The notes under the pieces were generated by a model. The model ran no database searches, was not told where the DNA came from, and worked only from the letters and a program-made list of their open reading frames with translations. Shown piece after piece: positions 17,041 through 61,439 of a stretch of 64,000 bases of DNA. The DNA comes from an uncultured virus (IMG/VR IMGVR_UViG_3300031813_000014) (lineage: Duplodnaviria; Heunggongvirae; Uroviricota; Caudoviricetes). The position numbers and the translations under genes were made by a program. How positions within the stretch are numbered: position 1 is the stretch's first letter; the number at the start of each line of letters is the position of its first letter. The stretch lies in IMG/VR virus record IMGVR_UViG_3300031813_000014; one strand, written 5' to 3'.

Positions 17041-19822
17041 TGTTAACGATCACATCCAAGTTAATCAAATCAGACTTATTTAAATTAAACTTTAAAGCAC
17101 GGATTGGGGGCGACACAACTGCCATGCCTTTGGACATGCGCTTATTAATACCCTCTACAAACACCTCGGCATCGGTCATTTCTTTAAGGATATTCTTGTA
17201 GTTGTATTGGTTTTTGACGCAGAAGTCTTTAAATGGTTTTGCGGCAATATACAGTTCTTTAGTATCTGGCTCGTAGCGTACGAGCAATTCACCCCTTGGT
17301 TCCCTGAGCGGCAAAGAATTTAAACCGCTTCGTGCGTCAACTACGCCATTTACTACGAGCATGTTGTTAGCAACGTGGGCATTAATAAACTCACCCAGTG
17401 GGGCTGTGGGTAAATCTTGTGGGGGCTTTACGTCTTCCTTAATACTCTTAAGGGTTTTTACGCACCACTTGTAAATAGCTGCCATATCAAAGTCGCATAG
17501 CCCTAGATGCTTGGCAATTAACCCTGCGGAAATAATACATGCACACTGCGCAGACCAAAACCTCTCGGCTGATGTGAACTGCACATCCTTGTCTAACCTA
17601 GCTTGGGTTTTTTTGAGTAAATCATCCTTGATGTACTCAAGATTGTTAACGCAGTATTGTATAAAAATCTCGCCAGCGTGTCCGTAATTCTCAAATAACT
17701 GGTGGTCAAACATTTGCTTGCCTTCGGAAACGCTAATAGCATCGCTTGGCTGGATTTCATACTCAAGCAACCGCAACTGTTCGGCGTTCGCTGCGCTTTT
17801 AAATGAACTCATCTTCTCGTAGAAGCTAGAGTTGGCTGAGCATAAAGTCATGCAGGCCCAAGTTACATCGTTAGGTCTAAGTGTATTTGTATGCGCTGAG
17901 GCTCTGTCTTTATCTTTGCCGCCTGACGTACTGTACGCATAGTTAGAAAAAGTGTCGGCGGTCATGTTTGTGATCTCGTCAACTAGATTAGGCATATGAC
18001 ACAGAATGCCCAACTTAATCATCTTAGCATTGATCGTGTCTTTAGGCGTAGATACCAAACTTCGGGGGTTGCCCCATATGCTAGCCGCCATGTTAAGGGT
18101 AGTTGTTTTACCAGACCCACCGTGCTTGTAGATTACGTTCACTATTGCGCCATTTAAACCTGTGAACTTGAATATGGGGGAAGCAAAACCCACCAATGCG
18201 GCAAACGCATTTGCCTCAAGCCCCGGTCTGGCGTACATGTTAAACACTTCTTTCCATTTTTCAAGCGTACCTTTGGGGTGTATATGGGGGACCATTGCCT
18301 TGGTTGCAGAAGATGGCGGGCTGTAAAACACACCATCCTTTGTTATTTCTTTATCACCCATAATGAATCGACTGTTATTGTCGCACCAACCAAATTGATT
18401 TCTCATGATCTCTGCCTTTCTTTGAAATTGCATATTCTTAATAACCGTTACAACATAACGAGCGAGTAGCTCGTATTCTTTAGCATGCGTAACAACCCCT
18501 TGTTGAGCTAACTGTTTGCGTAGCTCATCCTTTGACGATATAACACTCGTCGGTATCGTGAATTCTCGAACGCCATCATGCGGCAGGTGTAGACGAAACA
18601 ACGCAATCTCACCTAACGCAGTGTCGCTCATTCGTTTGACCACATAAAAATCGTGCTCATAAACTAAATCTGGGTCCTCTTCTTCATTCTTCTTATAGAT
18701 GCCGCCGTTCTTGCCCCTGAAGTACGGGAACGGATACTCTGGTATCTTGATGACTTTGTCTTTGACGACAACTTCGTTGTCCTCTTTGGTTGCTTCGGCT
18801 ATCTCAATACCCAAAACAATCGGTGATTTGATTTTTCCTTTGTGCACACACTCATCGCATCCAGTCGGATTAAGTTTCTCGAACTGTGCACATGAGTGGG
18901 GGCCACCTGTTTTGACGATGTAGTCAACTTTTTTATCCACTTCGGCTGGGTCATAGCCTTCGTGCTTGTTGGACATCTTATGAGATGCCCAATCTTTATC
19001 TACACAAAACGCTGTGATAGATAAGGCTGAACGCCACAATGGTTCCTCAATGCTATTTTGATTTTCATAGCAATGTATAAGCTGATTGCACTCAGCTTTA
19101 ATCATGATGGTCTTAAACCGTTTAAGTTTATTACCAATCATAGCCTCCATCATGGGGCTCATCTTACGAGCAAACTCAGGTACTTCATCCTCGGGATCAG
19201 GAGCACCGAGAATTTCTTTGACCTGCTCGTAAGTCATCCGTTTTGACTTCTCATTTATAACCATAACCTCAAGAGGCTCGGCTTTAAAGTTGAACGTACC
19301 CGGAATTCGTAACACGCGAGATGCTTCGAACACTGACGCATCAACGATGAGTCCATGCTCTTGGCTTAGATCACGCAGTCGGTGTGACAATGGTTGCCAA
19401 TCCCTGCGCTCTATAGTTTTATCAAGCAACCAATAGGCATGAATGCCGTTGCCTGAGTTGATGAGTACCGGCTTTGGTAAGCCGACCGTCATGCAGAACT
19501 TTTGAAGTTCAACCAACCCAATCTCTTGGGTCAGATAACCCTTGACTATGCCGTCTTCGTCGGGTATCCCCTTCTTTGGGCCACAATCAATATCCACCCA
19601 TAAAGCCCTAAAGTAAACAGCATTCTCATGCGTGCGGTTGTTGGCTGGTCCAAACTTAGCGCATCCATAATATGCATCGACTTTGTTCTCTACAAATTGT
19701 TTCGTTATCTCTTCAACTTCTTCTCTAGTATCTACAAATCTTTGGTCAGGAAATTTACCACCAAGCCCAAGTACACAATACCTACCCTCAGTGGGTAGAA
19801 CGGTGTCTAATAGGTCGAACAT
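17009..19822 (-). CDS. DNA primase-helicase (RepB/AEP-like primase + Cys cluster + DUF927-associated P-loop helicase)
   Basis: 937 aa. WVDID and SGNGIHAYW...SRVLRIPGTFN primase motifs, Cys cluster (CAQF...CDEC), Walker A GGSGKTT, Walker B LVDE. Confidence 0.85.
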   Translation of the reverse strand: MFDLLDTVLPTEGRYCVLGLGGKFPDQRFVDTREEVEEITKQFVENKVDAYYGCAKFGPANNRTHENAVYFRALWVDIDCGPKKGIPDEDGIVKGYLTQEIGLVELQKFCMTVGLPKPVLINSGNGIHAYWLLDKTIERRDWQPLSHRLRDLSQEHGLIVDASVFEASRVLRIPGTFNFKAEPLEVMVINEKSKRMTYEQVKEILGAPDPEDEVPEFARKMSPMMEAMIGNKLKRFKTIMIKAECNQLIHCYENQNSIEEPLWRSALSITAFCVDKDWASHKMSNKHEGYDPAEVDKKVDYIVKTGGPHSCAQFEKLNPTGCDECVHKGKIKSPIVLGIEIAEATKEDNEVVVKDKVIKIPEYPFPYFRGKNGGIYKKNEEEDPDLVYEHDFYVVKRMSDTALGEIALFRLHLPHDGVREFTIPTSVISSKDELRKQLAQQGVVTHAKEYELLARYVVTVIKNMQFQRKAEIMRNQFGWCDNNSRFIMGDKEITKDGVFYSPPSSATKAMVPHIHPKGTLEKWKEVFNMYARPGLEANAFAALVGFASPIFKFTGLNGAIVNVIYKHGGSGKTTTLNMAASIWGNPRSLVSTPKDTINAKMIKLGILCHMPNLVDEITNMTADTFSNYAYSTSGGKDKDRASAHTNTLRPNDVTWACMTLCSANSSFYEKMSSFKSAANAEQLRLLEYEIQPSDAISVSEGKQMFDHQLFENYGHAGEIFIQYCVNNLEYIKDDLLKKTQARLDKDVQFTSAERFWSAQCACIISAGLIAKHLGLCDFDMAAIYKWCVKTLKSIKEDVKPPQDLPTAPLGEFINAHVANNMLVVNGVVDARSGLNSLPLREPRGELLVRYEPDTKELYIAAKPFKDFCVKNQYNYKNILKEMTDAEVFVEGINKRMSKGMAVVSPPIRALKFNLNKSDLINLDVIVNNEDRVGELQH

Positions 19823-20072
19823 TTTGTTTGCGTTTCCTCAAGAATTCAATGTAATCTTTGATGCGTAGATGCTGATATTGGTAAGGCTGCGATGTGCCTT
19901 TAAACCAATTGTAGATAGTAGCCCTGCTCACGTTGAGCTCTAGGGCTACCTCCGAAACTGGAACACCTGCCTCAATACAATGTTTCCCCAAAGATACGCC
20001 AAGTTGCAACTTACGAAGGCTGGACGCCTTCTTGTTTGCTTTTACTAATTCTTGGCTGTATCCGTGACTCAT
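19788..20072 (-). CDS. XRE/Cro-type helix-turn-helix protein
   Basis: VSEVALELNVSRATIYNWFKG is a canonical HTH. Confidence 0.8.
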   Translation of the reverse strand: MSHGYSQELVKANKKASSLRKLQLGVSLGKHCIEAGVPVSEVALELNVSRATIYNWFKGTSQPYQYQHLRIKDYIEFLRKRKQNVRPIRHRSTH

Positions 20073-28701: not shown

Positions 28702-28729
28702 AATATAGCACTACTTTTGACTTTGTCAA
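28702..28729 (-). promoter_or_regulatory. Putative sigma70-type promoter (TTGACA-16-TATATT, extended -10)
   Basis: Minus strand TTGACA AAGTCAAAAGTAGTGC TATATT ACGTT ATG, immediately after the early terminator. Confidence 0.55.
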
Positions 28730-28740
28730 TAGTTAGGACG

Positions 28741-28764
28741 AAAAAAAGCCCACAAAAGTGGGCT
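28741..28764 (-). terminator. Rho-independent terminator ending the early transcription unit
   Basis: Minus strand AGCCCAC-TTTT-GTGGGCT followed by a T-run. Confidence 0.85.
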
Positions 28765-28773
28765 AGGGTTTTC

Positions 28774-28787
28774 CTGACATTTGTCAG
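28774..28787. repeat. 14-bp dyad CTGACATTTGTCAG, copy 1
   Basis: Exact copy between the DUF3310 stop and the terminator. Confidence 0.95.
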
Positions 28788-28792
28788 ATTTT

Positions 28793-29317
28793 TTATGTTG
28801 ATGCTATTGCACGATCAATATACCATCGAGCTTTCTTTAAGTCTTCTACTCGGTTGCCCTTGTGGTCTGCACGGCTTATGTATTTCACCGCATTGCCAAG
28901 GTTGTAGTCCAGCTTCTTCGCTTCGATAAAGTCAATCGTTTCAATACCGCCAACTTTATAGTGCGATGGGTGATTGACCATATCACTTGGCTCATGAACC
29001 ACGGGTACAGTCTGAGGTACACCCTTCACACCCTCACTTGTTTCTACAAGCACACCCACAGGTGGTTGCCATTCTTTAGCAATCTCTGTCGGCACAATAG
29101 AATGTGTATGAGTGATGAGCTTGTTCAACTCAGCGAAAGACTTTACCGACTTGGGTGTTTCGACTGGCTTAAACAGCTTCTTTGCTTTGTACATAACTTG
29201 ATATACAAAATCAGAAGTTTCGCCCAACTCTTTAGCCACTTCCGCTAAGGTCATAGTGGGGTGACCCGCTACAAATTTACGCACGATACCTGATCTAGAA
29301 TTAGCTTGTAATCCCAT
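28793..29317 (-). CDS. DUF3310 (T7 gp1.7-like nucleotide kinase) domain protein with N-terminal HTH-like region
   Basis: DMVNHPSHY..GGIETIDFI...GNAVKYISR...KG..EDLKKARWY. Probable start MGLQ at 29317. Confidence 0.8.
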   Translation of the reverse strand: MGLQANSRSGIVRKFVAGHPTMTLAEVAKELGETSDFVYQVMYKAKKLFKPVETPKSVKSFAELNKLITHTHSIVPTEIAKEWQPPVGVLVETSEGVKGVPQTVPVVHEPSDMVNHPSHYKVGGIETIDFIEAKKLDYNLGNAVKYISRADHKGNRVEDLKKARWYIDRAIAST

Positions 29318-29501
29318 TTTCTCTCTCCTTTTGGTTGTTAACATAGTTAGTAAGAATTTCTCTCATTTTGGCTTGCTTGGTAAACGGGTGATGCTCAGAA
29401 AAATAATCCATTATCTCTTTGCTCAACCGAATACTTGTACAAGTGAGAGCGGGCTTCTTACCTGCGCCCCTACCCTTACGTCTTAGTTGTTCTGACATCA
29501 A
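29301..29501 (-). CDS. Small ribbon-helix-helix-like (BrnA-like) DNA-binding protein
   Basis: GRGAGKKP..TSIRLSKEIMDYF...MREIL. Confidence 0.55.
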   Translation of the reverse strand: MMSEQLRRKGRGAGKKPALTCTSIRLSKEIMDYFSEHHPFTKQAKMREILTNYVNNQKERENGITS

Positions 29502-29758
29502 CGTTCCAACCCATTCGCTAATAGGTATTGTTGAATGGCCTCAGCCAAAGTTTGTCCTGCCTGTACGATGTAATACTCTTTGGTCCAATCAGGCCCACGA
29601 TTACTAGGTTTGTACTTAGCAATTTCTAAAACTTTGCCGTTTGACGCGTTGATTACACCTATCTTAATATCCGATATAGAATCAGGCTCAGAACTCGAAA
29701 GTATTTCAGATACTGCTATTGATGGCAGTCCCATCAGTCTTCTTAATGCGCTATTCAT
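29498..29758 (-). CDS. Hypothetical protein
   Basis: 86 aa, ATGA-coupled. Confidence 0.6.
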   Translation of the reverse strand: MNSALRRLMGLPSIAVSEILSSSEPDSISDIKIGVINASNGKVLEIAKYKPSNRGPDWTKEYYIVQAGQTLAEAIQQYLLANGLER

Positions 29759-29970
29759 TTTGATTTGTCCTTTGCTTGGTTATAAATATCTTTGACTACT
29801 GAAGTGAAACGATTAATCGCTTCGTGCTGAGACAGCCCTTGTTGTTCAAACGCAATCGCTAAATCCATTGCCAGTATGAACGTACCCTCACCTACTGTAA
29901 ACCCACCATCATGAAATTGTTGGGCGATTGTCTCGCCCATCTCCTTCATCTCTTGCATAGTTTTACTCAT
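29755..29970 (-). CDS. Hypothetical protein
   Basis: 71 aa, ATGA-coupled. Confidence 0.6.
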   Translation of the reverse strand: MSKTMQEMKEMGETIAQQFHDGGFTVGEGTFILAMDLAIAFEQQGLSQHEAINRFTSVVKDIYNQAKDKSK

Positions 29971-30149
29971 ATCTTTTCCCCTGTATAGATGTGATTAAAA
30001 AAATAACTGATTACTGTTGTCGGCACTTGAAATGCTTCCGCAATCTCTCGATACGACATACCTCTTTTGCGTAGAGTGATAGCTCTACTCTCGTTAATCG
30101 GAGTCCGCTTTCGACCCGATCCTTTCCTCGCTCCCCCCTTTGTGTGCAT
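29967..30149 (-). CDS. Small HTH DNA-binding protein
   Basis: GGARKGSGRK arm followed by LRKRGMSYREIAEAFQVPTTVI. Confidence 0.7.
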   Translation of the reverse strand: MHTKGGARKGSGRKRTPINESRAITLRKRGMSYREIAEAFQVPTTVISYFFNHIYTGEKI

Positions 30150-30285
30150 GTGTTTCGCTTTCCTGTTTTGTTAATAAATACAATTTACAAACTGTACATA
30201 GCCAAGCAGGTTTAACCAAAGTTACGACCCACCCTTCATGCACATTGACCAACCTACCTTCGTAGGTGTTCACCTGTTTAATCAT
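30094..30285 (-). CDS. Hypothetical protein (possible zinc finger)
   Basis: WLCTVCK...HAH. Confidence 0.5.
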   Translation of the reverse strand: MIKQVNTYEGRLVNVHEGWVVTLVKPAWLCTVCKLYLLTKQESETHAHKGGSEERIGSKADSD

Positions 30286-30390
30286 GGTTCAACAATAGCC
30301 ACGTGATCCAACCCATTGCCAATGCTATGATTGCTAAGACAATCGACTGGACAATTGCAAATATAATTATGATTAAATCGAGTGTAGTCA

Positions 30391-30597
30391 TTACCATACC
30401 CTTAACATTAGACAGAGTATAAAGTATACCGCAAATAGTGTGCAAGCTATTTCGATAATATCTTTTACCTCGATCTCACGCTTTATACCTAGTAACGCAC
30501 TCTGTAACCAGTCTTGATCTGGACTGTAATAGACCTGCTTGGGCTCGTAGTACTTACCGATCTCAAGACCTGATCTGGTTTTATACACATTCTTCAT
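30391..30597 (-). CDS. Small membrane protein
   Basis: Probable start MKNVY. C-terminal hydrophobic helix. Confidence 0.55.
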   Translation of the reverse strand: MKNVYKTRSGLEIGKYYEPKQVYYSPDQDWLQSALLGIKREIEVKDIIEIACTLFAVYFILCLMLRVW

Positions 30598-31441
30598 CGT
30601 CACCCCCCAATGCAATTAAAAATGATGTGGCATTCATGCGATAGCCAACTGTGGATACAAAGTCATTGTCGCTAGCCAACTTCATAAAGCCGATCTTAGA
30701 TTTTATGTCTTGTGGTAAGTCATCATCGTTATACATACGTGCGCCTTTGTTAACATACTTGCAGAGATACCTACCATTGTCAATTACGACAATCACGTAG
30801 TGCTTAGCTTCGGCAATAGCATTCATCATGTTGTATTTCTCCATTAACTCACCTTGCTTATCTAGATGGAATTTACATTGTTGAAACATGTATGTATTAT
30901 TCTCTTTCAAAAAGTTCATAAACATACTGAATCCGTCAGTACCAACAGCCCAACTTCTTGCATGGTCATGCACAACTCTAGCTTCTGCGTTCGCATCGCT
31001 ACGATAGCGCCTGAGTGCTAAGTTTATTTCGTGTACTATTTTGTTGCTTGCAGTTTCTACACGTTCGTTGATAGTTGTAGGAAAGAAGTTCTTCTTAATT
31101 ACACTAACCGCTTTGTTGGCATCTTTTGTCGCATAGCCCGATCCATTTGATCTGCTAGCTCTAATACGTGGATTATCAACCTCAATTTTCCAGTCGCCAC
31201 GGGCGTATCGTCTTACGATAATACCAAGAGATTCGTTGGTAGAGTCAAAGAAAACTTCGACCGCTTGTATCTTTTGGTTGTACTCGCTCGCCATCTCAAA
31301 ACGCCACATTGGATATAGCTTTGCCACTTTCTCAACGACTTCGCCTAAGTCCGCATACATCTCTAAGTTCTCTTTGGTTGCAGTCGGCATATGCGCAAGT
31401 AGTTTCTTGCTTACGATCACATTGGGTAAATATTCAAACAT
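30581..31441 (-). CDS. Hypothetical early protein
   Basis: 286 aa, GAAAGGAAA RBS directly after a dyad. Confidence 0.75.
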   Translation of the reverse strand: MFEYLPNVIVSKKLLAHMPTATKENLEMYADLGEVVEKVAKLYPMWRFEMASEYNQKIQAVEVFFDSTNESLGIIVRRYARGDWKIEVDNPRIRASRSNGSGYATKDANKAVSVIKKNFFPTTINERVETASNKIVHEINLALRRYRSDANAEARVVHDHARSWAVGTDGFSMFMNFLKENNTYMFQQCKFHLDKQGELMEKYNMMNAIAEAKHYVIVVIDNGRYLCKYVNKGARMYNDDDLPQDIKSKIGFMKLASDNDFVSTVGYRMNATSFLIALGGDDEECV

Positions 31442-31454
31442 GTTGTTTCCTTTC

Positions 31455-31468
31455 CTGACATTTGTCAG
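31455..31468. repeat. 14-bp dyad, copy 2 (contains the TGA stop of the upstream gene)
   Basis: Exact copy. The 24-bp context 31446-31469 is identical to 32321-32344. Confidence 0.95.
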
Positions 31469-32316
31469 AAATCAAATTTGTTGAGGATTGCATCGACCTT
31501 CTTCTTGAGTTCTTCACGCTCGTATCCGCTATCTTTGATAGCCTCAACGTGCACACCCACCATGGTGCGCTCAAGCTCTTGCCTTGCCTGTTCTAACTTA
31601 GGATCATTGGTCACGTTCAGCTTAGTCAATAGCTCGCACAGTTCTACTGGGTTAGACACAAACGAATCGTGGAACCGCTTCTTCTCGTCGTCCCCATTGT
31701 CCTTTAGCTTTTCTGACATATCCGTAAGCACACGATGTAGCTTCTCCCATGGAGCCTTCATTGCATCGGCTAACCGTTCCTCAAACTTAGTCTCGTAGTC
31801 CCGCTTCAGATCTTCTAAATCATGCGACGGTATATCTAAGCGAAAGTCACCAGACTCGGGCAAGGGGTTGACGCTACGTCTGAACCCAAACTTATCTTTC
31901 ACCTCGTCAAGACTGGGGTAGTCACTCGCTTTGAACATAGAACCTAAGTGCATCGGTGCTTCAGCCACCAATCGGTCATAGTCGGCAAAGAAGTTCATGC
32001 ACATACTGTTGAACGTGGCTTCGTATGCTTTGATGTTAGTCAAGTATTCCATCACTAACTTAGTAGGCAGTAAGCGTTCGCCTTTGTCAGCCCAAGGTAG
32101 TGTGTGCTGATTGTGATACAAGCGTGCTCTCGCAGCGAACTTCTCGATTTCCTTGCGTGCACCAGTTCCTGCAAACAGATTCTTCTTGGTCTGCGATGCG
32201 TCTCTGCTTGCTGACGCATTGGCATTTACCTGTTCGGTAATATCCCTATCCACCTTCGTGGCGGGCCATACGCTGATATTCAACTCTACTAATAACGCTG
32301 ATTCACTAATACTCAT
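31465..32316 (-). CDS. DUF3150-like protein
   Basis: Probable start MSISE at 32316 after AAAGGA. TLPW...RLLP...F...Y...YPS..EV..KF pattern. Follows the VWA gene. Confidence 0.55.
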   Translation of the reverse strand: MSISESALLVELNISVWPATKVDRDITEQVNANASASRDASQTKKNLFAGTGARKEIEKFAARARLYHNQHTLPWADKGERLLPTKLVMEYLTNIKAYEATFNSMCMNFFADYDRLVAEAPMHLGSMFKASDYPSLDEVKDKFGFRRSVNPLPESGDFRLDIPSHDLEDLKRDYETKFEERLADAMKAPWEKLHRVLTDMSEKLKDNGDDEKKRFHDSFVSNPVELCELLTKLNVTNDPKLEQARQELERTMVGVHVEAIKDSGYEREELKKKVDAILNKFDF

Positions 32317-32329
32317 GATTTTTCCTTTC

Positions 32330-32343
32330 CTGACATTTGTCAG
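32330..32343. repeat. 14-bp dyad, copy 3
   Basis: Exact copy 1 bp beyond the VWA gene stop. Confidence 0.95.
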
Positions 32344-32344
32344 A

Positions 32345-33544
32345 TTAATTAAGATAAATTGTTTTGCCGTTGTCCGCAGTAGCGTGGTTGGCTTGTGTGA
32401 TTGCCCATATGGTTGGTGCAGTCCAGTCACTACCCCAGTCATCGCCCACATAACCATCGGTCAACATAATGACGCACTCGGGTACGATCTTCTGTTCGTT
32501 GAGATATGTGGATACGCAACTAGGTGAAGTCCCGCCCCCGCCAGCGGGCCTTGTTGATTCGATGATTGTGGATACTGTTGATTCATCATACGTCTCGTGC
32601 GATGCTACTTCGCTATCCCAATAGATTAGATCTACTGCGCTAGGATTAACCTCCTCGGCAATAGCTTTAACCTCAGATAAAAACTCAGCCAACTCATCGT
32701 TACCGATAGAGCCTGATGTGTCGATACCAATTACCAAGTGACCGACCTTCTGTCCAATCATGCTTGGCATGTACGTACCTGTGCCCAAGAACCTACGATT
32801 GACACGACGCCATGACGATGTGTCTTTGGCTTTGCATGTAGACTTAACGAACTCACGCAGTAGATCTCGCCAGTCCACTTTGGGTTGCATAAGATCCCCA
32901 AGCTCACGATCCATTCCACCTGCGCCACTACCCACATTCTTCTGATGTGCCATGAGTCCTTGGCGAATAGCTTGGTCAACCTCACGCTCAAGAACCTTCT
33001 TCTCCTCGTCGGTTAGATTCTTCGCACCTTCCCAGTCGTGAATGTCGAACCCTTCATCGTCACCACCCTCACCTTGCTCCTCCCTGAGTATGTCAAAGAC
33101 CTGCTTGGTGTTCATGCCTTTGAACCGCTCGTCGATAAGACCCATGAACTTACCCTTGTTCGGTCCGCTCTTGAAACGTGGCATAGCAATGACACTCGCA
33201 GTCGGATCCAGATCACAGAGCATCAGGTTAATAACGTAGTCACAAGCCGCATTGGTTAATGCTGGATCAATCTCATGCAACTTAGTCCACGTTGTTAAGT
33301 GTCGATACATTTTGTGTGCAGTCTCGTGAGCAATCACAAAACATAACTCAGCATCGGATAACTCTTTGACAAACTGCCTACCATAGATCTCGTCACGACC
33401 ATTGGTACATGCACTTGATACGTCATCACGTACGTGCGTACGACCAATCATCATCACGCCCTGCAATAAAGCAAACTTTGGGTTACGCATTAGTGCGATT
33501 TTGCACTTCTGCAACTTACGTTCTTCGTTCATAATTTCCTCCAT
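32345..33544 (-). CDS. DUF2201-type metallopeptidase + VWA domain protein
   Basis: ACTNG...HETAH (HExxH)...NAACDYVIN, then IDTSGS (MIDAS), GGGGT, LTDGY. Confidence 0.85.
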   Translation of the reverse strand: MEEIMNEERKLQKCKIALMRNPKFALLQGVMMIGRTHVRDDVSSACTNGRDEIYGRQFVKELSDAELCFVIAHETAHKMYRHLTTWTKLHEIDPALTNAACDYVINLMLCDLDPTASVIAMPRFKSGPNKGKFMGLIDERFKGMNTKQVFDILREEQGEGGDDEGFDIHDWEGAKNLTDEEKKVLEREVDQAIRQGLMAHQKNVGSGAGGMDRELGDLMQPKVDWRDLLREFVKSTCKAKDTSSWRRVNRRFLGTGTYMPSMIGQKVGHLVIGIDTSGSIGNDELAEFLSEVKAIAEEVNPSAVDLIYWDSEVASHETYDESTVSTIIESTRPAGGGGTSPSCVSTYLNEQKIVPECVIMLTDGYVGDDWGSDWTAPTIWAITQANHATADNGKTIYLN

Positions 33545-33767
33545 ACCAACTAATTTCTTCAGTTACTTCTTGTTTTGTGCGACCGTTTATCAGTAAGCAC
33601 ATGTTGAGGGCTTCGTCTTTCGTATCGTGAATTGATACTAATTTGCCTACTTGCCCCCAACCAGATTCGGTAACTACCACTTCGTACTTACCTGTAAAAT
33701 ACAAACCGTTCGATGTTTCATCAATGCCAGTCTGTCGTCTAACCCATGCAGTTCTTACTTCTGACAT
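33516..33767 (-). CDS. Hypothetical protein starting inside a dyad
   Basis: 83 aa. ATG lies in dyad copy 4. C-terminus resembles 33771-33998. Confidence 0.55.
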   Translation of the reverse strand: MSEVRTAWVRRQTGIDETSNGLYFTGKYEVVVTESGWGQVGKLVSIHDTKDEALNMCLLINGRTKQEVTEEISWYGGNYERRT

Positions 33768-33774
33768 TTGTCAG
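33761..33774. repeat. 14-bp dyad, copy 4 (contains both the upstream TGA and the downstream ATG)
   Basis: Minus strand C-TGA-CAA-ATG-TCA-G. Confidence 0.95.
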
Positions 33775-33998
33775 GATCCTGAGTCAATAAGTAACCTAAC
33801 CATATTTGCTAACTCCTCTTTGGTTTTGAATTTGGCTATCGTCTCGGGCTTAACGCTACCCGAGTCTTGGTGTGGTACACGCACAAGCAAATACTCATCG
33901 CCAACTATACCCACGGAGTAACCCGCTCTGTATAGCTCCATTAAGTATGGTGTTTGTGTTATCCAACCATCTATAGAGTAATCAAATAATTCTGACAT
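33771..33998 (-). CDS. Hypothetical protein bounded by two dyads
   Basis: 75 aa. ATG in copy 5, TGA in copy 4. Confidence 0.55.
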   Translation of the reverse strand: MSELFDYSIDGWITQTPYLMELYRAGYSVGIVGDEYLLVRVPHQDSGSVKPETIAKFKTKEELANMVRLLIDSGS

Positions 33999-34005
33999 TT
34001 GTCAG
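33992..34005. repeat. 14-bp dyad, copy 5
   Basis: Exact copy 2 bp beyond the AAA gene stop. Confidence 0.95.
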
Positions 34006-34007
34006 CT

Positions 34008-35072
34008 TTACAGTAAGTCTTGATTCTTAGCAACCCAATCAGCGAACGCTTTGCATGAGAACGCAATGCTCTGCTTAATTGGAGTCTTCGCAATGTTGAT
34101 AGCGAACACGGCTTGCCACTCGGCATCGAACCGCTCTAAGTAGTCCATGAATGGAGTAATGGTGTTTTTGTCCACTCTACTGATAGCAGAGAACACAGTA
34201 ATCGCACAAGCCCCAGGTGATGTGGGAACCTTTGTGACTGTTGGCGTAGCTATAACTTGCTCCCATGTTGGCAGTTGATCTGCGAACTCGATATACGCTT
34301 GCATATCACGAGCACCAGCTTCACCGATTGCACCTGACAATGCAGATATAACAGAGTCGGCATCATTTTCTCTGCGAGACTTCACGATATTCGAAGCAGT
34401 CTCAAGTGAACGTGGAGATACAAATGCTCCAGTTGTTTTCTTGGGGTTATAGATGTAGGGGTTATCATTTTGTCCACCATCGGTATACGATGCTAGAACC
34501 TGTGGGAACCGAGACACCCATGCACACACCTCGGGCTCGATGCCTTTGTTGATAGCCCATGATAACCACTCGTCAGCAGTTGGTTTGGATATTTGAATAG
34601 GCACAAGACGGTTTCTGCTGTGCGCTTTCATCGTGTCCCCTACTCCGTCAGAGCTAAGGTTACCAGTCAGAAACACAATACAGTCTTTATGCAATGACAC
34701 ATCACCGCATCGTGGGTTAGCCTTCTCAAGCATTGGGTGTAGCATATTCTTTACTGGGTCAGCACCCTTGGTAAACTCGTCGAGCATAATTACCAATGGT
34801 TTGCCCTCATGCAACTTGAACCTAGCATTAGGATAGTACCTAGTAGTCTTGGTATCGTGGTCAATGACTGGCATCGCAATGTCGCCTAAGTCCATGTTGG
34901 GTACGTCAATGTATGCGTACTCATATCCAAGCCCCTCGGCAACGTCTTTGAGCAATGAACTCTTACCGATACCTGGCTCGCCTAATAGACAGAATCGAGT
35001 CTCAGGATTGGTGCGAATCAATGTGGCTGCTTGCTTAAGGGTAACTGTTTTACCGAATCTAACTTCTGACAT
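34008..35072 (-). CDS. AAA+ ATPase (MoxR/CbbQ/dynein-related clade)
   Basis: GEPGIGKS, IMLDEF, TGN sensor, SPRS. Probable start MSEVRF at 35072 after GAGGAG. Confidence 0.85.
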   Translation of the reverse strand: MSEVRFGKTVTLKQAATLIRTNPETRFCLLGEPGIGKSSLLKDVAEGLGYEYAYIDVPNMDLGDIAMPVIDHDTKTTRYYPNARFKLHEGKPLVIMLDEFTKGADPVKNMLHPMLEKANPRCGDVSLHKDCIVFLTGNLSSDGVGDTMKAHSRNRLVPIQISKPTADEWLSWAINKGIEPEVCAWVSRFPQVLASYTDGGQNDNPYIYNPKKTTGAFVSPRSLETASNIVKSRRENDADSVISALSGAIGEAGARDMQAYIEFADQLPTWEQVIATPTVTKVPTSPGACAITVFSAISRVDKNTITPFMDYLERFDAEWQAVFAINIAKTPIKQSIAFSCKAFADWVAKNQDLL

Positions 35073-35093
35073 TTCTAACTCCTCTAATAAAAT

Positions 35094-35107
35094 CTGACAT
35101 TTGTCAG
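35094..35107. repeat. 14-bp dyad, copy 6
   Basis: Exact copy. The 33-bp context 35075-35107 is identical to 37146-37178. Confidence 0.95.
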
Positions 35108-35145
35108 GAAAAATATATAGCAGACGAATTTCTACTATATATAAC

Positions 35146-35174
35146 ATTGTAACACAGTATAATAACTATGTCAA
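35146..35174 (-). promoter_or_regulatory. Early sigma70 promoter P3 (TTGACA-17-TACAAT, TG extended -10)
   Basis: Minus strand TTGACA TAGTTATTATACTGTGT TACAAT. Confidence 0.85.
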
Positions 35175-35184
35175 GCATTTTGGC

Positions 35185-36147
35185 TCATTCTTGGGGCAAC
35201 CAACCGTCGTACCTGTTGTGTGGGAGTTTGCCAATCGGCAACTTAACCCATTCGAGGCATTCTTTACGATAGTGGTAGTAAATAGGCTCAGTCACTATTG
35301 ATTTGAGTCTAGCCACAGTCACGTTGAACGATGTCAATTCTCTGCGTATCGCATGATTAAGTGAAGTAATTGCTAACTGCAACATGGCTTCGTGATACTT
35401 AGAAGTGTCACCGCTCTCCAATAACTCCATGAATCTGAACGTATGCAGTTCTCGATCCGCACCACCCAATAGATATTTGCAATGGCTACGATCTAAGTGA
35501 AAATATGCGTTACCTGCTGATGATGGTGATAAGTCAAAGTAATCTTTTAGTTCATCATAGTAAAATGTAACAATCTCTTGGTCCACTTGCCTTGCATAGT
35601 ACTGATGGCTTGAATGTGTAAGTGTGTGCTTGCGCAACTTAATCATATTTCTGACATATGTCAGAAACGGAGCATAACGCTTACGCAAATCACGAGCTAC
35701 GTCCTTCTTCAGTACCAAGTCAATCACGGCCTTTGGGTCAATCACGCTCAGCCGATCTTTGCTCAACACGTTCTCCTCAACCTTCAGATTGACCTCGTGC
35801 TTGTAGATGTACTTATTGCCGTTGGGCAATTGAATGACGTTGTTAAAATCCTCCTGATACGCACGCAGAGCCAAAACCTGTTCAAAGAGCTGATTACAGT
35901 TCGCACTATCGTAGTACATATTGAGCTTGATGGTGTTGTCGGGTCTAAACGTAATGACTGGGCGACGATAGTGCACTATCTGTACGTTTTCGCCTTCCAT
36001 GCGAATGTTGTATGCGTCGGCATCTCTGCGATTACCGAGTGGGCGCATGTCAGGTCTACCTCGTAAGGGCTTGATAACACTGTGGAAATGCAATGCTTCC
36101 GAATAGTTCCGTATAAACGGACACGCTTGTACTGTTCTATATCCCAT
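35185..36147 (-). CDS. Hypothetical early protein
   Basis: 320 aa, GAGGA RBS. Confidence 0.75.
   Translation of the reverse strand: MGYRTVQACPFIRNYSEALHFHSVIKPLRGRPDMRPLGNRRDADAYNIRMEGENVQIVHYRRPVITFRPDNTIKLNMYYDSANCNQLFEQVLALRAYQEDFNNVIQLPNGNKYIYKHEVNLKVEENVLSKDRLSVIDPKAVIDLVLKKDVARDLRKRYAPFLTYVRNMIKLRKHTLTHSSHQYYARQVDQEIVTFYYDELKDYFDLSPSSAGNAYFHLDRSHCKYLLGGADRELHTFRFMELLESGDTSKYHEAMLQLAITSLNHAIRRELTSFNVTVARLKSIVTEPIYYHYRKECLEWVKLPIGKLPHNRYDGWLPQE
35648..35667. repeat. Dyad variant, copy 7 (perfect 20-bp palindrome TTTCTGACATATGTCAGAAA), intragenic
   Basis: Core CTGACATATGTCAG at 35651-35664. Confidence 0.85.
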
Positions 36148-36148
36148 G

Positions 36149-36349
36149 TTAAATATCCTCTGTTATAGCTTGCGCTAGTCTTTGTGTTAATAAACTACGA
36201 ACCTTTTTGATGGCTTGCATCGGATCTGACGCATAAACGTGCATCTCACGAAAACTCGATTCAGTTTCCCATTGCACAATATGTAGAACCTCGCCCTCTT
36301 TGCCCATGTCGCTCTTGTTAGCGACTCGTGCGTAAAACTGTGTCATCAT
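36149..36349 (-). CDS. Hypothetical protein
   Basis: Probable start MMTQF at 36349 after GGAGG, not the longer ORF-track start. Confidence 0.6.
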   Translation of the reverse strand: MMTQFYARVANKSDMGKEGEVLHIVQWETESSFREMHVYASDPMQAIKKVRSLLTQRLAQAITEDI

Positions 36350-36441
36350 GTCCTCCAAATAAATACATCTAATAGCACCACGATAATGGCAACTAAGAAA
36401 ACAATGCGCATGATGCGCTCCTCGTGCGTGAATAAACTCAT
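36346..36441 (-). CDS. 31-aa membrane peptide
   Basis: Below cutoff. MSLFTHEERIMRIVFLVAIIVVLLDVFIWRT*, GAGGAGG RBS, ATGA overlaps. Confidence 0.6.
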   Translation of the reverse strand: MSLFTHEERIMRIVFLVAIIVVLLDVFIWRT

Positions 36442-36617
36442 AACTGAACCTCCTCGTGTTTAATGACAATGTTAACTTCCATGTTCTTGATCTTGGTCAA
36501 GTCGTCACGGGTCAACGTCTTCTGACCTAGCATGTCGGCAAATTGATGAGCCAATTTGCACTCAGGATAAAAAACCGTTTTGCCGTATGTGTTCTTAACT
36601 CTTACTGTAATGTCCAT
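36438..36617 (-). CDS. Hypothetical protein (59 aa)
   Basis: Below cutoff. MDITVRVKNTYGKTVFYPECKLAHQFADMLGQKTLT..., AAAGGA RBS. Confidence 0.7.
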   Translation of the reverse strand: MDITVRVKNTYGKTVFYPECKLAHQFADMLGQKTLTRDDLTKIKNMEVNIVIKHEEVQL

Positions 36618-36645
36618 GTTGTTCCTTTACTGATGTTATGCTTTC

Positions 36646-36659
36646 CTGACATTTGTCAG
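36646..36659. repeat. 14-bp dyad, copy 8
   Basis: Exact intergenic copy. Confidence 0.95.
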
Positions 36660-36666
36660 ATTTTTG

Positions 36667-36918
36667 TTAATCATTCTCTGCACCGATATAGCACCCTGCA
36701 AAGTAGTGCGTATGTCCGAACGCTCTAATCACGCCAATCGGCATTCTTCTGTTGAGTTTTCTAGAACTCCGCTCAAGTTCAAGTTCGTACTTGTATGCAG
36801 ATACAGAACGTCGTTTCAAGTCACGCTTGTATGGCTTTAATGCTTTGACCAAGTACTTATGGGGTATTTGTGCCTGACCTAGCAATGGTTGTGTTGAGGT
36901 AAATTTAAAATGTGCCAT
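36667..36918 (-). CDS. Hypothetical basic protein
   Basis: 83 aa, co-oriented, fills the gap. Confidence 0.5.
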   Translation of the reverse strand: MAHFKFTSTQPLLGQAQIPHKYLVKALKPYKRDLKRRSVSAYKYELELERSSRKLNRRMPIGVIRAFGHTHYFAGCYIGAEND

Positions 36919-36922
36919 GATG

Positions 36923-37141
36923 TTAAATCTTTTTGGGGTTAATCTGTTTCACAGTTGTAGGTGCTTGCGTAGATGTAACAAACATGTAGCCACCTTTGTT
37001 GTACTCTTGGACTATCGTCCATGATGCACGTTCGGCACGAGCGTGGTCTTCACCACAAAATAAGCAATGACGATAACCTAATGACCATCGTTCTATGTGT
37101 ATGTCGTCACCGCAAGTGTGACATTCTTTCCAGTTGTCCAT
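36923..37141 (-). CDS. C4 zinc-finger protein (DksA/TraR-like finger)
   Basis: CHTCGDDIHIER...CLFC. Probable start MDNWK at 37141 after GAGGAG. Confidence 0.6.
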   Translation of the reverse strand: MDNWKECHTCGDDIHIERWSLGYRHCLFCGEDHARAERASWTIVQEYNKGGYMFVTSTQAPTTVKQINPKKI

Positions 37142-37164
37142 GGTACTAACTCCTCTAATAAAAT

Positions 37165-37178
37165 CTGACATTTGTCAG
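37165..37178. repeat. 14-bp dyad, copy 9
   Basis: Exact copy. Confidence 0.95.
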
Positions 37179-37226
37179 AAAAACTAACTGCTCTGATTAT
37201 GATGGGTGATCTCCCACCATCTATAT

Positions 37227-37255
37227 AGTATAACACAATGTTATAGTTATGTCAA
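37227..37255 (-). promoter_or_regulatory. Early sigma70 promoter P2 (TTGACA-17-TATACT)
   Basis: Minus strand TTGACA TAACTATAACATTGTGT TATACT. Confidence 0.85.
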
Positions 37256-37379
37256 GTGTTTTGAGCCGTTTTTGGCGCAACACGATGTTACGCATATGCA
37301 ATGTGAGCGTAGGGCTAAATCACGGAACTGGTTCAGGTTGTTACAAAATGAATAGGGTCGATGTGATAATGTTATGTAA

Positions 37380-37680
37380 CATTAGGGTAAAACGTAACGC
37401 AAAACGTAACGCCGTAAGTTGTTGATTTGTAAGGTGAAAATATGTGTTTAGGTATGTAATGTAATAAAGTTATAAAAAATAGAAAATAGAGAAAACGGCG
37501 CCAAAATTAAGTTATGCAGATTTGCTCCGCACTTGCCGAGAAGGTCGAGCGATTACCCGCTTATTCAATTTCAAAAAAAAACGTAACATATAACATTGCT
37601 TTAAAATCAACAACTTAGCAAAAACAAAACGTAACAAAGCCCTAAAAAACGTAACAAAGCATGAGCTAAAACATAACATG
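37380..37680. repeat. Iteron-like AAAACGTAAC repeats with two inverted IHF-consensus sites (putative origin)
   Basis: AAAACGTAAC at 37389, 37401, 37578, 37626 and 37646, variant at 37668. TAAGTTGTTGATT at 37415-37427 and AATCAACAACTTA at 37605-37617. Confidence 0.65.
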
Positions 37681-37785
37681 CGGTAAGGCCAAGCCCGAGC
37701 GCTGGCTTGGGAACTGGTGCAACATAGTAAACCGAGTCACCATGTAAATCAATAGCACAAAGAATGACGATGTTACAGAAACGAC

Positions 37786-37806
37786 AAAAGCCCACCGAAG
37801 TGGGCT
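37786..37806 (-). terminator. Putative terminator hairpin
   Basis: Minus strand AGCCCAC-TTCG-GTGGGCT-TTT. Same stem as the 28741 terminator, short U-tract. Confidence 0.65.
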
Positions 37807-37829
37807 AAATGTAACAGAATAAATTTTAG

Positions 37830-38096
37830 TTAAACTCGATTCGCAATTTGCGCTCGATTGTGCAGGTTTCTATCAAAACGCAAATCGTCAGCGAATGCAA
37901 TCCAAAACGACGTGACGTAACTGTAAGGCAAACCATGGATTTTGAAAAACTGAGCCACCTTTGCACGATATGGATTAGTTCTTGTATTACCTTGCAAACC
38001 TTCAGACTTTGTTGCGCTCATTCTAATGTCATCAAGCAGTGCTTGAATCATTCTATCCTGAGCATTACGCTCTGCTATATTTACTCTGTTACGCAT
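37830..38096 (-). CDS. Hypothetical early protein
   Basis: 88 aa, AAAGGGG RBS after a dyad. Confidence 0.6.
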   Translation of the reverse strand: MRNRVNIAERNAQDRMIQALLDDIRMSATKSEGLQGNTRTNPYRAKVAQFFKIHGLPYSYVTSFWIAFADDLRFDRNLHNRAQIANRV

Positions 38097-38111
38097 AGTT
38101 TCCCCTTTGAA

Positions 38112-38139
38112 CTAGAATCTGACATTTGTCAGATTCTAG
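38112..38139. repeat. 14-bp dyad, copy 10, extended to 13-bp arms
   Basis: CTAGAATCTGACA-TT-TGTCAGATTCTAG, core at 38119-38132. Confidence 0.95.
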
Positions 38140-38150
38140 AGAGTGGTTAA

Positions 38151-38711
38151 TTAGTCCTTGTATACGTCAGCCAATGAACCAAAACATACAAACGCATTCT
38201 CTAAAGCTTCCAAAGCTTTGAGTGACTTAGGCATATACTCTTTGCCCTGTTCGGCTTTCTGTATGCGACGTAATATCGTAGCTAGCTCTTTCATTGTCAC
38301 GGTATCGCAAGATTTATCGGCTTCGCTAGAATCAGACTCTGACTTTTCTTTGCCCGCCTGTTCTTGTATCCTTTGCCATACTTTGTAAGCATTATTAGCA
38401 GTTAAACCCGATTCATCTTGCAAACGTCTTTGTAATATTTTCTTGTACTCTGCGACACCTTTGCCAAGATTACCAGTCAAAGCAAACCAAGCTTTAAACA
38501 CTTTCCCATTTTCAATGCCTGCCTTGTAATCCTCGATTGTCTTAAACTCAGCACGATTAGCGCCCTCAGTTAACATAGTGAAACGATGGTGCATGGATAG
38601 CGCCACGTTACGCTGTAACTCGCCAGTCTTACCAAACGCTTTAACTAACTCATTGGTATCTTTCTCAAGCATACCGTCGTTAATTGACGATGTTGTATTT
38701 TCTACTTGCAT
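38151..38711 (-). CDS. First early gene, hypothetical
   Basis: 186 aa, GAGGA RBS, downstream of P1. Confidence 0.7.
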   Translation of the reverse strand: MQVENTTSSINDGMLEKDTNELVKAFGKTGELQRNVALSMHHRFTMLTEGANRAEFKTIEDYKAGIENGKVFKAWFALTGNLGKGVAEYKKILQRRLQDESGLTANNAYKVWQRIQEQAGKEKSESDSSEADKSCDTVTMKELATILRRIQKAEQGKEYMPKSLKALEALENAFVCFGSLADVYKD

Positions 38712-38750
38712 TTTCTAATCCTCTAATGTTGATTAACTTACTTTGTAAAT

Positions 38751-38764
38751 CTGACATTTGTCAG
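38751..38764. repeat. 14-bp dyad, copy 11
   Basis: Exact copy, arms extend to AAAT...ATTT (38747-38768). Confidence 0.95.
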
Positions 38765-38803: not shown

Positions 38804-38832
38804 ATTATAACACAATGTAATGATAATTGCAA
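38804..38832 (-). promoter_or_regulatory. Early sigma70 promoter P1 (TTGCAA-17-TATAAT)
   Basis: Minus strand TTGCAA TTATCATTACATTGTGT TATAAT. Confidence 0.8.
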
Positions 38833-43805: not shown

Positions 43806-43996
43806 GAGAACGTGCTAATTTCTCTGCCCTGATGCACATAGAACGCCAAAAACAGGTGGACTTTGTAGCGAGTGGCAGATGCGTTGATTTCGCCGAATAT
43901 CGGCACATCTGTGGGATTATCCGGGGTCTAGAACTCGCAGATCAAATTGTAGACGACCTCGTGCAAAAAATGGAGAAAGACGATGACGAGTTTTGA
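43802..43996 (+). CDS. Hypothetical protein
   Basis: 64 aa. DFAEYRHICGIIRGL, between portal and GroES. Confidence 0.65.
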   Translation: MRERANFSALMHIERQKQVDFVASGRCVDFAEYRHICGIIRGLELADQIVDDLVQKMEKDDDEF

Positions 43997-44387
43997 CGTA
44001 TCCGCTGTGGACTTATCTGGGATCCTTAACAAGGGCACCGAGGATAAAGCCAAACAGTTGCCAGACCCTAAGCGATTTCATTTGCTCTGCGTGGTTCCCG
44101 AAGCTATTGAGGAATATGCGGACTCTGGGATTGTAAAGTCTAGTCAAACAATGCACTATGAAGAAGTACTGACCCCAGTGTTATTCGTAGTCAAAATGGG
44201 CCCCGACGCTTATAAAGATACGACTCGCTTTCCTAGCGGTCCGTCTTGTAAAGAAGGGGATTTTGTTATCACCAGACCTAACTCAGGCACCCGCCTGAAA
44301 ATTCACGGTCGTGAATTCAGAATCATCAACGATGATTCTGTTGAGGCCGTTGTAGAAGATCCACGCGGAATTTCCCGCGCTGCTTAA
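43983..44387 (+). CDS. groES: Co-chaperonin GroES (Cpn10)-like protein
   Basis: SGIV mobile loop, VVKMGPDAY...CKEGDFV...G.EFRIINDDSVEAVV. Confidence 0.85.
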   Translation: MTSFDVSAVDLSGILNKGTEDKAKQLPDPKRFHLLCVVPEAIEEYADSGIVKSSQTMHYEEVLTPVLFVVKMGPDAYKDTTRFPSGPSCKEGDFVITRPNSGTRLKIHGREFRIINDDSVEAVVEDPRGISRAA

Positions 44388-61300: not shown

Positions 61301-61439
61301 TGGTGGCGCGCCATCCCAGTCTGCTGGTTGGCCTACAGGTGGCGGCGGTGCGCCAGCTCAATCTGCTGGTTGGCCTGATACTTTTGGTGGAGCGCCTGCG
61401 CAGTCAGCAGGATGGCAAGCGGTTAACAACAGTACTTAG
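58377..61439 (+). CDS. Highly acidic 20-aa-repeat virion protein
   Basis: MFGTSAFAQTPFA start, then tandem 20-aa units (S.SEDAGWAE.E, later SITEDQQ.AD), then WPTGGGGAPAQSAG-type repeats. Confidence 0.8.
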   Translation: MFGTSAFAQTPFAALVKTSTNYALSISEDAGWSESETGTFSLLFSTSEDAGWAETESGAFSFLFSTSENAGWAESETGTFSLLFSTSENAGWAETDSASANFPLSKSEDAGWAETDLATANFPLSRSEDASWAETDSAAFVFSFSVFENTNWAESESASISFRFSTTEDAGWADAESVAEIFSVSVSENVGWAESEFISEVFFVSISENAGWDDTRVISEAFSLSVSESVGWIDSESASISFVFSTSEDVSWADTKSLIEAYFVSISENTGWADSESLAAEFSESISEDASWADSETNTATLSVSISEPTNWAESDSATANFPLSRSENTGWAESESFTIYFSASVSEDVAWADSNSAGNSIALSISEDANWAESETITASFAASVSEDVAWAEAATTFAVILFTAAEDVGFIASNSFQELLQFFITEGLQVDDSESNTASLNVSISEDSQYSDSESSSNQFTASITEDQQFADFSSLQFLYFLSVTEDQQYNNSESNTANLNVSITEDQQLADFSALQFLYFFSITEANQLAETEANINTFPFSITEDQQFADFSTLQFLYFLSITEDQQYNNTESNAVAYSASIVEAQQLADFSALNFLYFLSITEDNQLAETEFNISFYTDSITEDQQFAETDVINSLYFLSVTENAQWADAEDVLGEFNVSISEDSQYNDNSSTSNAFVASITENNQPAEFSALQFLYFLSITEDNELADAESNTATLNVSVSENTQLADTESVLGEFYVSVFEDAQYADTESNNATLDLSITEDQQFTDFSALQFLYFLSIIEDNQLADSESNTATLNLSITEDTKWGDTVFVSAGFAGSVTEGQQFAESSDLHFIYYLSVSEDAQYADTNATRWDWVNSIEESYNIYDAPLYLNLAAIASITENAGWAETESNLTKFYANVTETITLADVLSLIVIWNVTDGMSMGDAVFISVATALSIVEDFQSIETMDETGFGTVVNVQNADWPTGNGGAPSQSAGWPTGGGGAPAQSAGWPDTFGGAPAQSAGWQAVNNST

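Follow-up and report, generated by a model that had tools for sequence, protein, structure and literature searches.

A dyad array in the early region of a freshwater phage

The 64,000-nucleotide (nt) stretch analysed here (the window), from the uncultured virus IMGVR_UViG_3300031813_000014, contains most of a podovirus-like genome, with genes for PolA, an SNF2 helicase, a DUF927 primase, terminase, portal and capsid, and for a DarB-like virion protein of 2883 amino acids (aa). Complete relatives are 62-67 kb in length and the source datasets are lake and freshwater metagenomes, with no RNA dataset listed among them. The early region lies on the minus strand and runs from a promoter, P1 (38832), to a terminator (28764-28747), with two further promoters, P2 and P3, and an inner terminator. 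It carries an array of short palindromic repeats, here called dyads, and its first gene, for which we coin the label gp1, is the candidate for the protein that binds them (Table 1).

A scan of the window located ten exact copies of CTGACATTTGTCAG at the positions claimed in a preliminary description of this DNA, together with the variant CTGACATATGTCAG at 35651; as that description also stated, there are no further copies, with zero other sites at two or fewer mismatches on both strands of the 64 kb. The 22 strand-hits at this tolerance, equal to 11 sites, compare with a mean of 0.65 and a maximum of 4 in 100 shuffled sequences. TGACA-N2-TGTCA occurs 11 times, while the same half-sites with N1, N3 or N4 spacers do not occur. 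All ten exact copies have AA at the centre on the transcribed (minus) strand, the flanks on that strand are of the form Y...R (left pyrimidine in 10 of 11, right purine in 11 of 11), and the arms extend to 13 bp at 38119 and to 10 bp at 38751 and 35651. The first copy lies approximately 33-46 nt past P1, and the last stops 9 nt short of the stem of the early terminator; in all these respects the preliminary description was accurate. Its placement of the ten exact copies at gene junctions or in leaders is correct, with three dyads in the P1-P3 leaders and seven at junctions or gene ends; the variant is within a coding sequence (CDS). Some dyads supply codons to the adjoining genes, namely TGA stops at 31455 and 33761 and ATG starts at 33761 and 33992. 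Three of the eleven dyads follow a promoter and one precedes a terminator.

Table 1. Features of the early region in window coordinates, in descending order of position (ORF, open reading frame; RBS, ribosome-binding site).
Positions	Strand	Feature
38804..38832	-	P1, sigma70-like, TTGCAA-17-TATAAT, extended TG; drives the gp1 unit
38751..38764		Dyad in gp1 leader, 10-bp arms; putative auto-operator
38151..38711	-	gp1, first early gene, 186 aa, dyad on either side; candidate cognate binder
38119..38132		Dyad 18 nt past gp1 stop codon, 13-bp arms; inverted centre in a close strain
37789..37806	-	Terminator ending the P1 unit (gp1 and the 88-aa ORF 37830-38096)
37227..37255	-	P2, TTGACA-17-TATACT
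37165..37178		Dyad in P2 leader, immediately ahead of RBS; ~33-nt repeat common to P3 leader
36646..36659		Dyad at gene junction
35651..35664		Variant dyad, centre TA, within CDS 35185-36147 (codons L-T-Y-V-R)
35146..35174	-	P3, TTGACA-17-TACAAT
35094..35107		Dyad in P3 leader, ahead of RBS of AAA ATPase (34008-35075)
33992..34005		Dyad with ATG of ORF 33771-33998
33761..33774		Dyad with TGA of ORF 33771-33998 and ATG of ORF 33516-33767
32330..32343		Dyad separating DUF2201/vWA gene from the following RBS
31455..31468		Dyad with TGA stop of ORF ending at 31465
28774..28787		Last dyad, 9 nt ahead of early terminator, ~-86 of replication-gene promoter
28747..28764	-	Early-region terminator
28702..28729	-	Replication-gene promoter, TTGACA-16-TATATT; no dyad downstream

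Dyad classes in relatives and selection for the sites

Relatives were taken as the best 80 of 307 AAA-ATPase loci, four of which are this phage or a close strain, and a class was called where a locus held at least three dyads of one class. The array is conserved, with at least three same-class dyads in 79 of the 80 loci. A 13-bp class, CTAACA-W-TGTTAG, accounts for 48 loci and a 14-bp class, CTAACA-NN-TGTTAG (A-type), for 26; CTGACA-NN-TGTCAG (G-type), the class of the window, is found in the four close loci, and CTTATA-NN-TATAAG (T-type) in one. The only locus without an array, L008, has a first gene unrelated to gp1; this gene has a long leader, and TTGTTACGTAAT is present three times upstream of its P1 (L008:5158-5350, 6115-6600). 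Six further G-type phages were located from the motif alone (L091, L107, L129, L134, L180 and L201). Whole records contain 11-20 sites in 13 of 14 cases, against none for the reversed pattern, the remaining record being that of the T-type phage. Confinement to the early region was likewise borne out: in the four complete genomes with sites fully listed, 57 of 58 sites fall within 10-15 kb, with one outlier.

The array is family-wide in these loci. Two relatives, L049 and L071, encode a divergent gp1 (L071:5661-6248, L049:190-771) that lacks the W-x-R helix described below and was recognised by profile with E-values of 9e-12 and 1.7e-9, which are partly circular; they have one N4 site (CTGACA-N4-TGTCAG) in the leader of this gene and only relic 13-bp sites far downstream. 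A scan for sites with a 4-nt spacer gave chance matches only, none of them with gp1. A more distant clade (L273-L284), with an AAA ATPase at 34% to the family of the window, shares the layout but not the dyads, which there are CCTGAC-N4-GTCAGG, TTCCAC-N6-GTGGAA, TTCAC-N6-GTGAA and TCTTG-N5-CAAGA. Homology of its first gene to gp1 was undetected (1.0% and 1.6%), and this gene forms a family of its own with 199 homologs. Iteron-like tandem repeats occur in some relatives, as 7-9 copies of the 19-bp unit TGCCTATTTTTTAAGCA(AC/GT) past the first gene (L049:1038-1640, L054:6722-6880, L071:6535-7100) and as 12-bp units upstream of the AAA promoter in L035-L037 (L035:139-190).

The AAA ATPase used to collect these loci is part of a conserved early module (31465-35075, minus strand) with the DUF2201/vWA protein and a 283-aa protein. 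It is N4 gp24-like at approximately 22-27%, and cultured phages gave no close AAA ATPase, the best being N4 gp24-like at 27%. No cultured phage with gp1 was found, and word-seeded scans of GTDB genomes, which are weak, found no relatives of gp1 or the AAA ATPase, and thus neither host nor prophage.

Codon use within conserved genes demonstrates that the dyads are selected for, including inside genes (ten ambiguous, weak or redundant loci were left out of this comparison). The AAA-ATPase peptide TASNIVR/K is encoded with an exact 13-bp site in 25 of 29 13-bp loci versus 4 of 19 14-bp loci, and in the conserved gene that follows ELTMLG is encoded with an exact 13-bp site in 22 of the 23 13-bp loci that have this peptide, compared to none of five 14-bp loci with LELTMLG. 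Conversely, a 14-bp site at YPx(L/I)TxV, which alters the protein, is present in 17 of 18 14-bp loci and in none of 26 13-bp loci. This class-specific use of codons indicates that the sites matter even where there is no promoter, terminator or junction.

The shared orientation of the window's dyads was previously taken as a functional feature, a view that the relatives do not uphold. In the 13-bp class the centres are mixed, with AAT at 230 and ATT at 157 of 411 sites, and the centre of site 38119 is flipped in a close strain; the 14-bp centres are biased, with AAAT at 170 and ATTT at 37 of 290 sites. The bias towards the ATG orientation, and the ten of ten in the window, may derive from start-codon overlap and the copying of leaders. 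In a set of 633 distinct sites the outer bases mirror one another, with C.83, A.10 and G.06 on the left and G.85, T.10 and C.04 on the right. The sites are palindromes, and half-site frequencies in them are mirror-symmetric. Nor did the suggestion of an RNA hairpin hold, given that folding of the 13-bp class yields just -2.2 kcal/mol and that pairing is broken in 152 of 178 variant outer pairs. The mixed centres in relatives and the variants that break RNA pairing point to double-stranded DNA sites rather than hairpins.

Covariation of gp1 with the dyad class

The class of the sites co-varies with gp1 and not with other genes. Clustering of all ORFs revealed that the first-gene slot is filled by two mutually exclusive families, f33 and f48, which are alignable. 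The former is found in 30 loci, all of the 13-bp class (30 of the 30 13-bp loci holding a gp1), and the latter, which includes the gp1 of the window, in 19 loci, all of the 14-bp class. In the 43 sequences that reach the terminase boundary, f33 is present in 27 of 28 13-bp loci, f48 in 14 of 14 14-bp loci, and neither in L008. On trees of matched loci (nine ambiguous loci dropped) the spacer class changes once for gp1, against five times for the AAA ATPase, five for terS, six for a Zn-finger gene, three for f6, four for the vWA gene, five for a ribbon-helix-helix (RHH) gene and five for a helix-turn-helix (HTH) gene of DUF3310. The check proposed in the preliminary description, namely which gene co-varies with the motif in relatives, thus singles out gp1, with one spacer change versus 3-6 for its neighbours; an approximately unbiased (AU) test on the AAA tree rejected a 14-bp clade (p-AU 0.016). 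When five classes were placed on a tree of 72 gp1 sequences, each labelled by its gp1-adjacent site (L237 and L240, without a flanking site, were left out), seven changes were needed, where the minimum is 4 and shuffled labels gave a mean of 28 and a lowest value of 22. At shared loci terS required 13 changes to 5 for gp1, and the AAA ATPase 10 to 4.

In four of 54 loci the sites adjacent to gp1 are unlike the distant majority, and each matches the gp1 clade; L287 behaves likewise. These mosaic loci suggest exchange of a gp1 cassette followed by rewriting of the sites. Among 43 loci retrieved with a profile of f48, some of them also in the first set, the array is of the 14-bp A-type in 37; the other six comprise one mosaic, the T-type phage, one cut contig, one locus of mixed type and two exceptions with 13-bp sites.

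The co-variation extends to the six residues up to a conserved W in gp1, which read N-P-S-x-x-W with 13-bp sites, T-I/V-D-V/T-Y-W with 14-bp A-type sites, N-A/I-Y/D-K/Q-x-W with G-type sites and V-E-Y-T/E-Y-W with a 15-bp site. N-V/K-H/Y-V-Y-W also pairs with 13-bp sites, in L237, L240 and L292, where the short spacer for this reason appears to have originated a second time. The rule, set beforehand, was borne out by the closest homolog of the window's protein, which was retrieved by protein sequence only and is represented by two contigs of one phage: it reads N-I-D-K-I-W and its flanking sites are G-type.

The preliminary description had put forward an undescribed early-region array of operators for a phage dimer, with three candidate proteins. 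The undescribed array stands, being conserved and confined, and its binding by a phage protein is predicted from co-variation, but none of the three candidates fits. The HTH protein encoded at 19788-20072, present in 38 of 43 records, has a helix, S-R-x-T/A-I/V-Y-N/S-W-F, that is near-constant in all classes, and its tree (28 rows) has six spacer changes; the RHH protein (29301-29501) has five on its own tree; and for the second HTH protein (29967-30149) homologs are limited to 14 of 81 sequences. The DUF3310-gene HTH was likewise rejected as binder, with five spacer changes and no tracking of class.

The gp1 family comprises 333 clusters at 50% identity. Its architecture is a helical N-domain with a W-x-R-I/V-K/Q helix, a flexible linker and a C-terminal helical hairpin; the AlphaFold2 model of gp1 has a mean predicted local distance difference test (pLDDT) score of 87.8, with a confident N-domain (91.6 for that of a relative) and a low-confidence linker at residues 121-130. 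Fold searches with models of whole gp1 and of the N-domain returned nothing significant, the best hits being generic helical bundles (Z 6.0 and 6.8), which is not proof of a new fold. Atlas leads to DUF3102, the phiC31 repressor c and a closterovirus coat protein (0.83-0.87) were below the bar, and Phage_int_SAM_4 matched two of 150 gp1 members at E 0.035 with no backing from the fold search. The phiC31 repressor c is a phage repressor with many conserved inverted-repeat operators, from a temperate, integrating phage; its family, PF25746, was a weak lead (0.83) with a Pfam match in none of 150 gp1 members.

Possible roles of gp1 and comparison with known systems

The position of the sites was analysed in 51 non-redundant loci. 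A site lies within 150 bp of 112 of 114 strong promoters, and 69 site-promoter pairs are at +30 to +59, mostly just upstream of the RBS. In many relatives the last site before the early terminator is at approximately -81 to -86 of the replication promoter, downstream of which there is none, and another is upstream of P1 at approximately -64 to -104. The median inter-site spacing is 619 bp, with no clear helical phasing of the spacings; 193 of 742 sites are inside conserved genes, 104 overlap a stop codon and 83 are within 30 nt past a stop. Promoter cores are seldom overlapped, so that simple occlusion is not the mechanism, and this geometry of leader, terminator and upstream sites fits auto-regulation with early shut-off better than promoter occlusion. 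The auxiliary operators of lac and gal type offer a comparison for such leader and auxiliary operators. In the P2 spacer (37227-37245) there is also a TAACA-N3-TGTTA overlapping the extended -10, as there is at six promoters of relatives.

We propose that the dyads are double-stranded binding sites for gp1, the first protein made, with CTGACAAATGTCAG as its target. The half-site would be read by the N-domain helix ending in W-x-R-V/I-K/Q, and two subunits joined via the C-terminal hairpin, as a putative dimer, would span the palindrome, with gp1 clades differing in their preferred spacer of 1, 2 or 3 nt. Produced from its own terminated P1 unit, gp1 would limit itself through the leader site; the P2 and P3 transcripts would then be damped through their leader sites (+30 to +59), and by roadblock or looping sites about every 600 bp as far as the early terminator, while the replication promoter would stay on, giving early shut-off. 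gp1 and the sites that flank it would pass between phages as one cassette, with conversion affecting leader sites first and coding sites later. That gp1 binds the dyads is very probable; if it does, its job is probably to lower early transcription. The explanation as a whole, a gp1 dimer on leader and roadblock operators damping the early genes, we favour by a modest degree.

Several observations weigh against this proposal. gp1 has no Pfam, PHROG, PDB-sequence or fold match, and thus no recognised DNA-binding fold or family, and its N-domain is not strongly basic (17 K+R versus 15 D+E). L049 and L071 persist with one N4 site and relics, hence a full array is not essential. L201/L287 depart from the residue rule, with T-I-D-T-Y-W and a G-type site, and in L237 and L240 an f48 gp1 goes with 13-bp sites, while a perfect flanking site is absent. 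Overlaps with promoter cores are rare, being limited to seven pairs, all of the 3-nt-spacer motif between -35 and -10. A large number of the loci are closely related, and the trees are mostly from FastTree. Finally, gp1 is located inside the array, so linkage adds to its co-variation; terS and the Zn-finger gene, which are linked to the same degree, show no co-variation.

It is unlikely that gp1 instead organises a DNA domain, bridging, compacting, tethering or shielding the 10-15 kb early segment, for instance once the DNA has entered, while transcription would be little affected. Such a role would suit the inter-site spacing, the share of sites inside conserved genes, the free orientation, the single genome domain bracketed by the array and the separate C-terminal hairpin on its flexible linker, and it has a model in MatP, whose chromosomal matS site is a similarly shaped 13-bp palindrome with 23 copies in one domain (PMC3116907). 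matS differs from the present dyads in its outer and third bases; in the window the sites have C/G as outer bases and a length of 14 bp, and TGACA-N1-TGTCA is absent. The strong tie of sites to promoter leaders and the sites on both sides of gp1 itself tell against an organiser, an architectural role leaves the repeated switching of specificity unexplained, and MatP matched none of 150 gp1 members in Pfam, nor was it listed in the fold searches.

Rather less probable is that gp1 activates transcription, or is loaded at the dyads as an anti-terminator or processivity factor, raising expression of early or replication genes. The recurrent sites upstream of P1 and of the replication promoter would be well placed for this, but their distances vary by at least half a helical turn, the majority of sites lie within genes or downstream of promoters, and the promoters come near to consensus as they stand. 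We give slightly less credence again to a host protein or another phage protein as the binder, with gp1 hitch-hiking: gp1 is without a known DNA-binding fold, yet a host factor would not switch class with gp1 in mosaic genomes, and eight other phage genes, three of them HTH or RHH, do not track the class.

That the dyads serve as recombination or cassette-shuffling sites, akin to PeSL cassettes (repeats of T4-type phages, see below) or integrons, is very improbable. Many sites are at gene boundaries, as counted above, gp1 apparently moves with its flanking sites, and an approximately 33-nt repeat is common to the P2 and P3 leaders; however, crossing over at the sites set into conserved genes would be harmful. 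Integrase, resolvase and ParA (PF00589, PF00239, PF13614) are absent from all 12 near-complete relatives (controls positive in 14, 12 and 14 of 14), leaving no tyrosine or serine recombinase there, and none of six listed joints falls at a dyad (four runs; joints were sought in contigs, in which rare products are invisible), so this earlier suggestion was not sustained. Incidental homologous exchange at the repeats is a likely side effect. Least probable of all is a hairpin, of RNA or extruded single-stranded DNA, as a signal for processing, antitermination or a virion RNA polymerase of the kind that uses hairpin promoters in N4-type phages: the ten co-oriented window copies, with stems of at least 5 bp and -6 to -18 kcal/mol in context, and the AAAT bias of the 14-bp class would agree with it, but the 13-bp and T-type (-1.2 kcal/mol) classes fold poorly, wobble variants are rare beside those that break pairing, sites upstream of P1 are outside transcripts, Rfam gave zero matches, and neither the DarB-like protein nor a 1068-aa virion protein matched a polymerase (Pfam, PHROGs), the early promoters being sigma70-like.

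Neither the motif strings nor a description of the array was found in the main texts of the literature searched. The closest array is that of the 17-bp dyad repeats of Cluster O mycobacteriophages, which are likewise many-copy dyads with a variable A/T-rich centre, lie both between and in genes and have no meaningful orientation; there the phage is not obviously temperate, and a dimeric binder is predicted with none identified (PMC4351075). Those TGTTCGG-N3 repeats are genome-wide and mostly not promoter-linked (PMC4351075), in contrast to the early-confined, promoter-linked sites described here with their co-varying candidate protein.

The preliminary description likened the array to mycobacteriophage stoperators and to the PeSL cassettes of T4-type phages; the logic of many sites and a co-diverging protein carries over, whereas symmetry, orientation, lifestyle and repeat unit do not. 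The closest logic is that of the Cluster A (L5/Bxb1) repressor, in which one phage protein serves many sites in promoters and short intergenic gaps and repressor and motif co-diverge (PMC9283540, PMC6550527). Stoperators, however, are asymmetric 13-mers, strictly oriented and bound by a two-domain monomer, in temperate phages with integrase or parA (PMC9283540, PMC6550527). The sites here are palindromes of free orientation, gp1 gave no match in Pfam, PDB-sequence or fold searches to the Cluster A repressor with its HTH and stoperator domain, and since the 12 near-complete relatives all lack integrase, resolvase and ParA, the system is not one of ordinary lysogeny. PeSL share with the dyads a regulatory repeat in a hyper-variable early region with sigma70-like promoters and varying gene content between repeats, but are cassettes of a promoter and a GC-rich terminator hairpin exchanged by homologous recombination, which between the repeats gives rise to deletions and minicircles (PMC2839356); the dyad is neither promoter nor terminator, and is also found inside conserved genes.

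The array is thus real, selected and family-wide, and its sites are, as judged from sequence, putative dispersed phage operators with a new candidate binder and a predicted function. An abundant orphan family, gp1, thereby gains a candidate function that can be tested, and the natural series of proteins and sites, in which spacer and half-site change together, should help in deriving a recognition code and in designing orthogonal repressors. Immunity in temperate phages is typically marked by repressor-operator pairs that diversify; such pairs in phages that lack integrase, resolvase and ParA suggest either that early shut-off operates where co-infecting phages compete or that there is a carrier state not yet recognised. 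Our best guess for the cause of the recurrent change in specificity is competition among phages of one class. A stronger version, which we offer as speculation and consider doubtful, is a code of self/non-self immunity in a large non-integrating freshwater family. gp1, as a new DNA-binding fold, would silence the early region in a co- or super-infecting phage of the same site class, and escape would be by a cassette swap to another spacer (1, 2, 3 or perhaps 4 nt) or half-site, after which leaders and codons would be rewritten over 10-15 kb; the unrelated first gene and other dyads of the sister clade would then imply more than one origin, or refilling, of the design. The missing binder of Cluster O might similarly be sought as the co-varying gene.

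Further features of the genome were noted. Between the terminator of the P1 unit and P2 (37260-37790) there is an A/T-rich, non-coding stretch of repeated (AA)CGTAAC(A/G) units, a candidate replication origin or genome end, and similar stretches are present in relatives of other dyad classes (L240, L008, L071). The HTH gene at 19788-20072 (minus strand) is beside the primase gene, and its product may bind this candidate origin. A GroES-like gene (43983-44387, plus strand) follows the portal gene. A 1020-aa gene (58377-61439, plus strand) contains a 60-nt (20-aa) repeat, and 201-nt repeats in 61452-63317 are common to 55783-55993.

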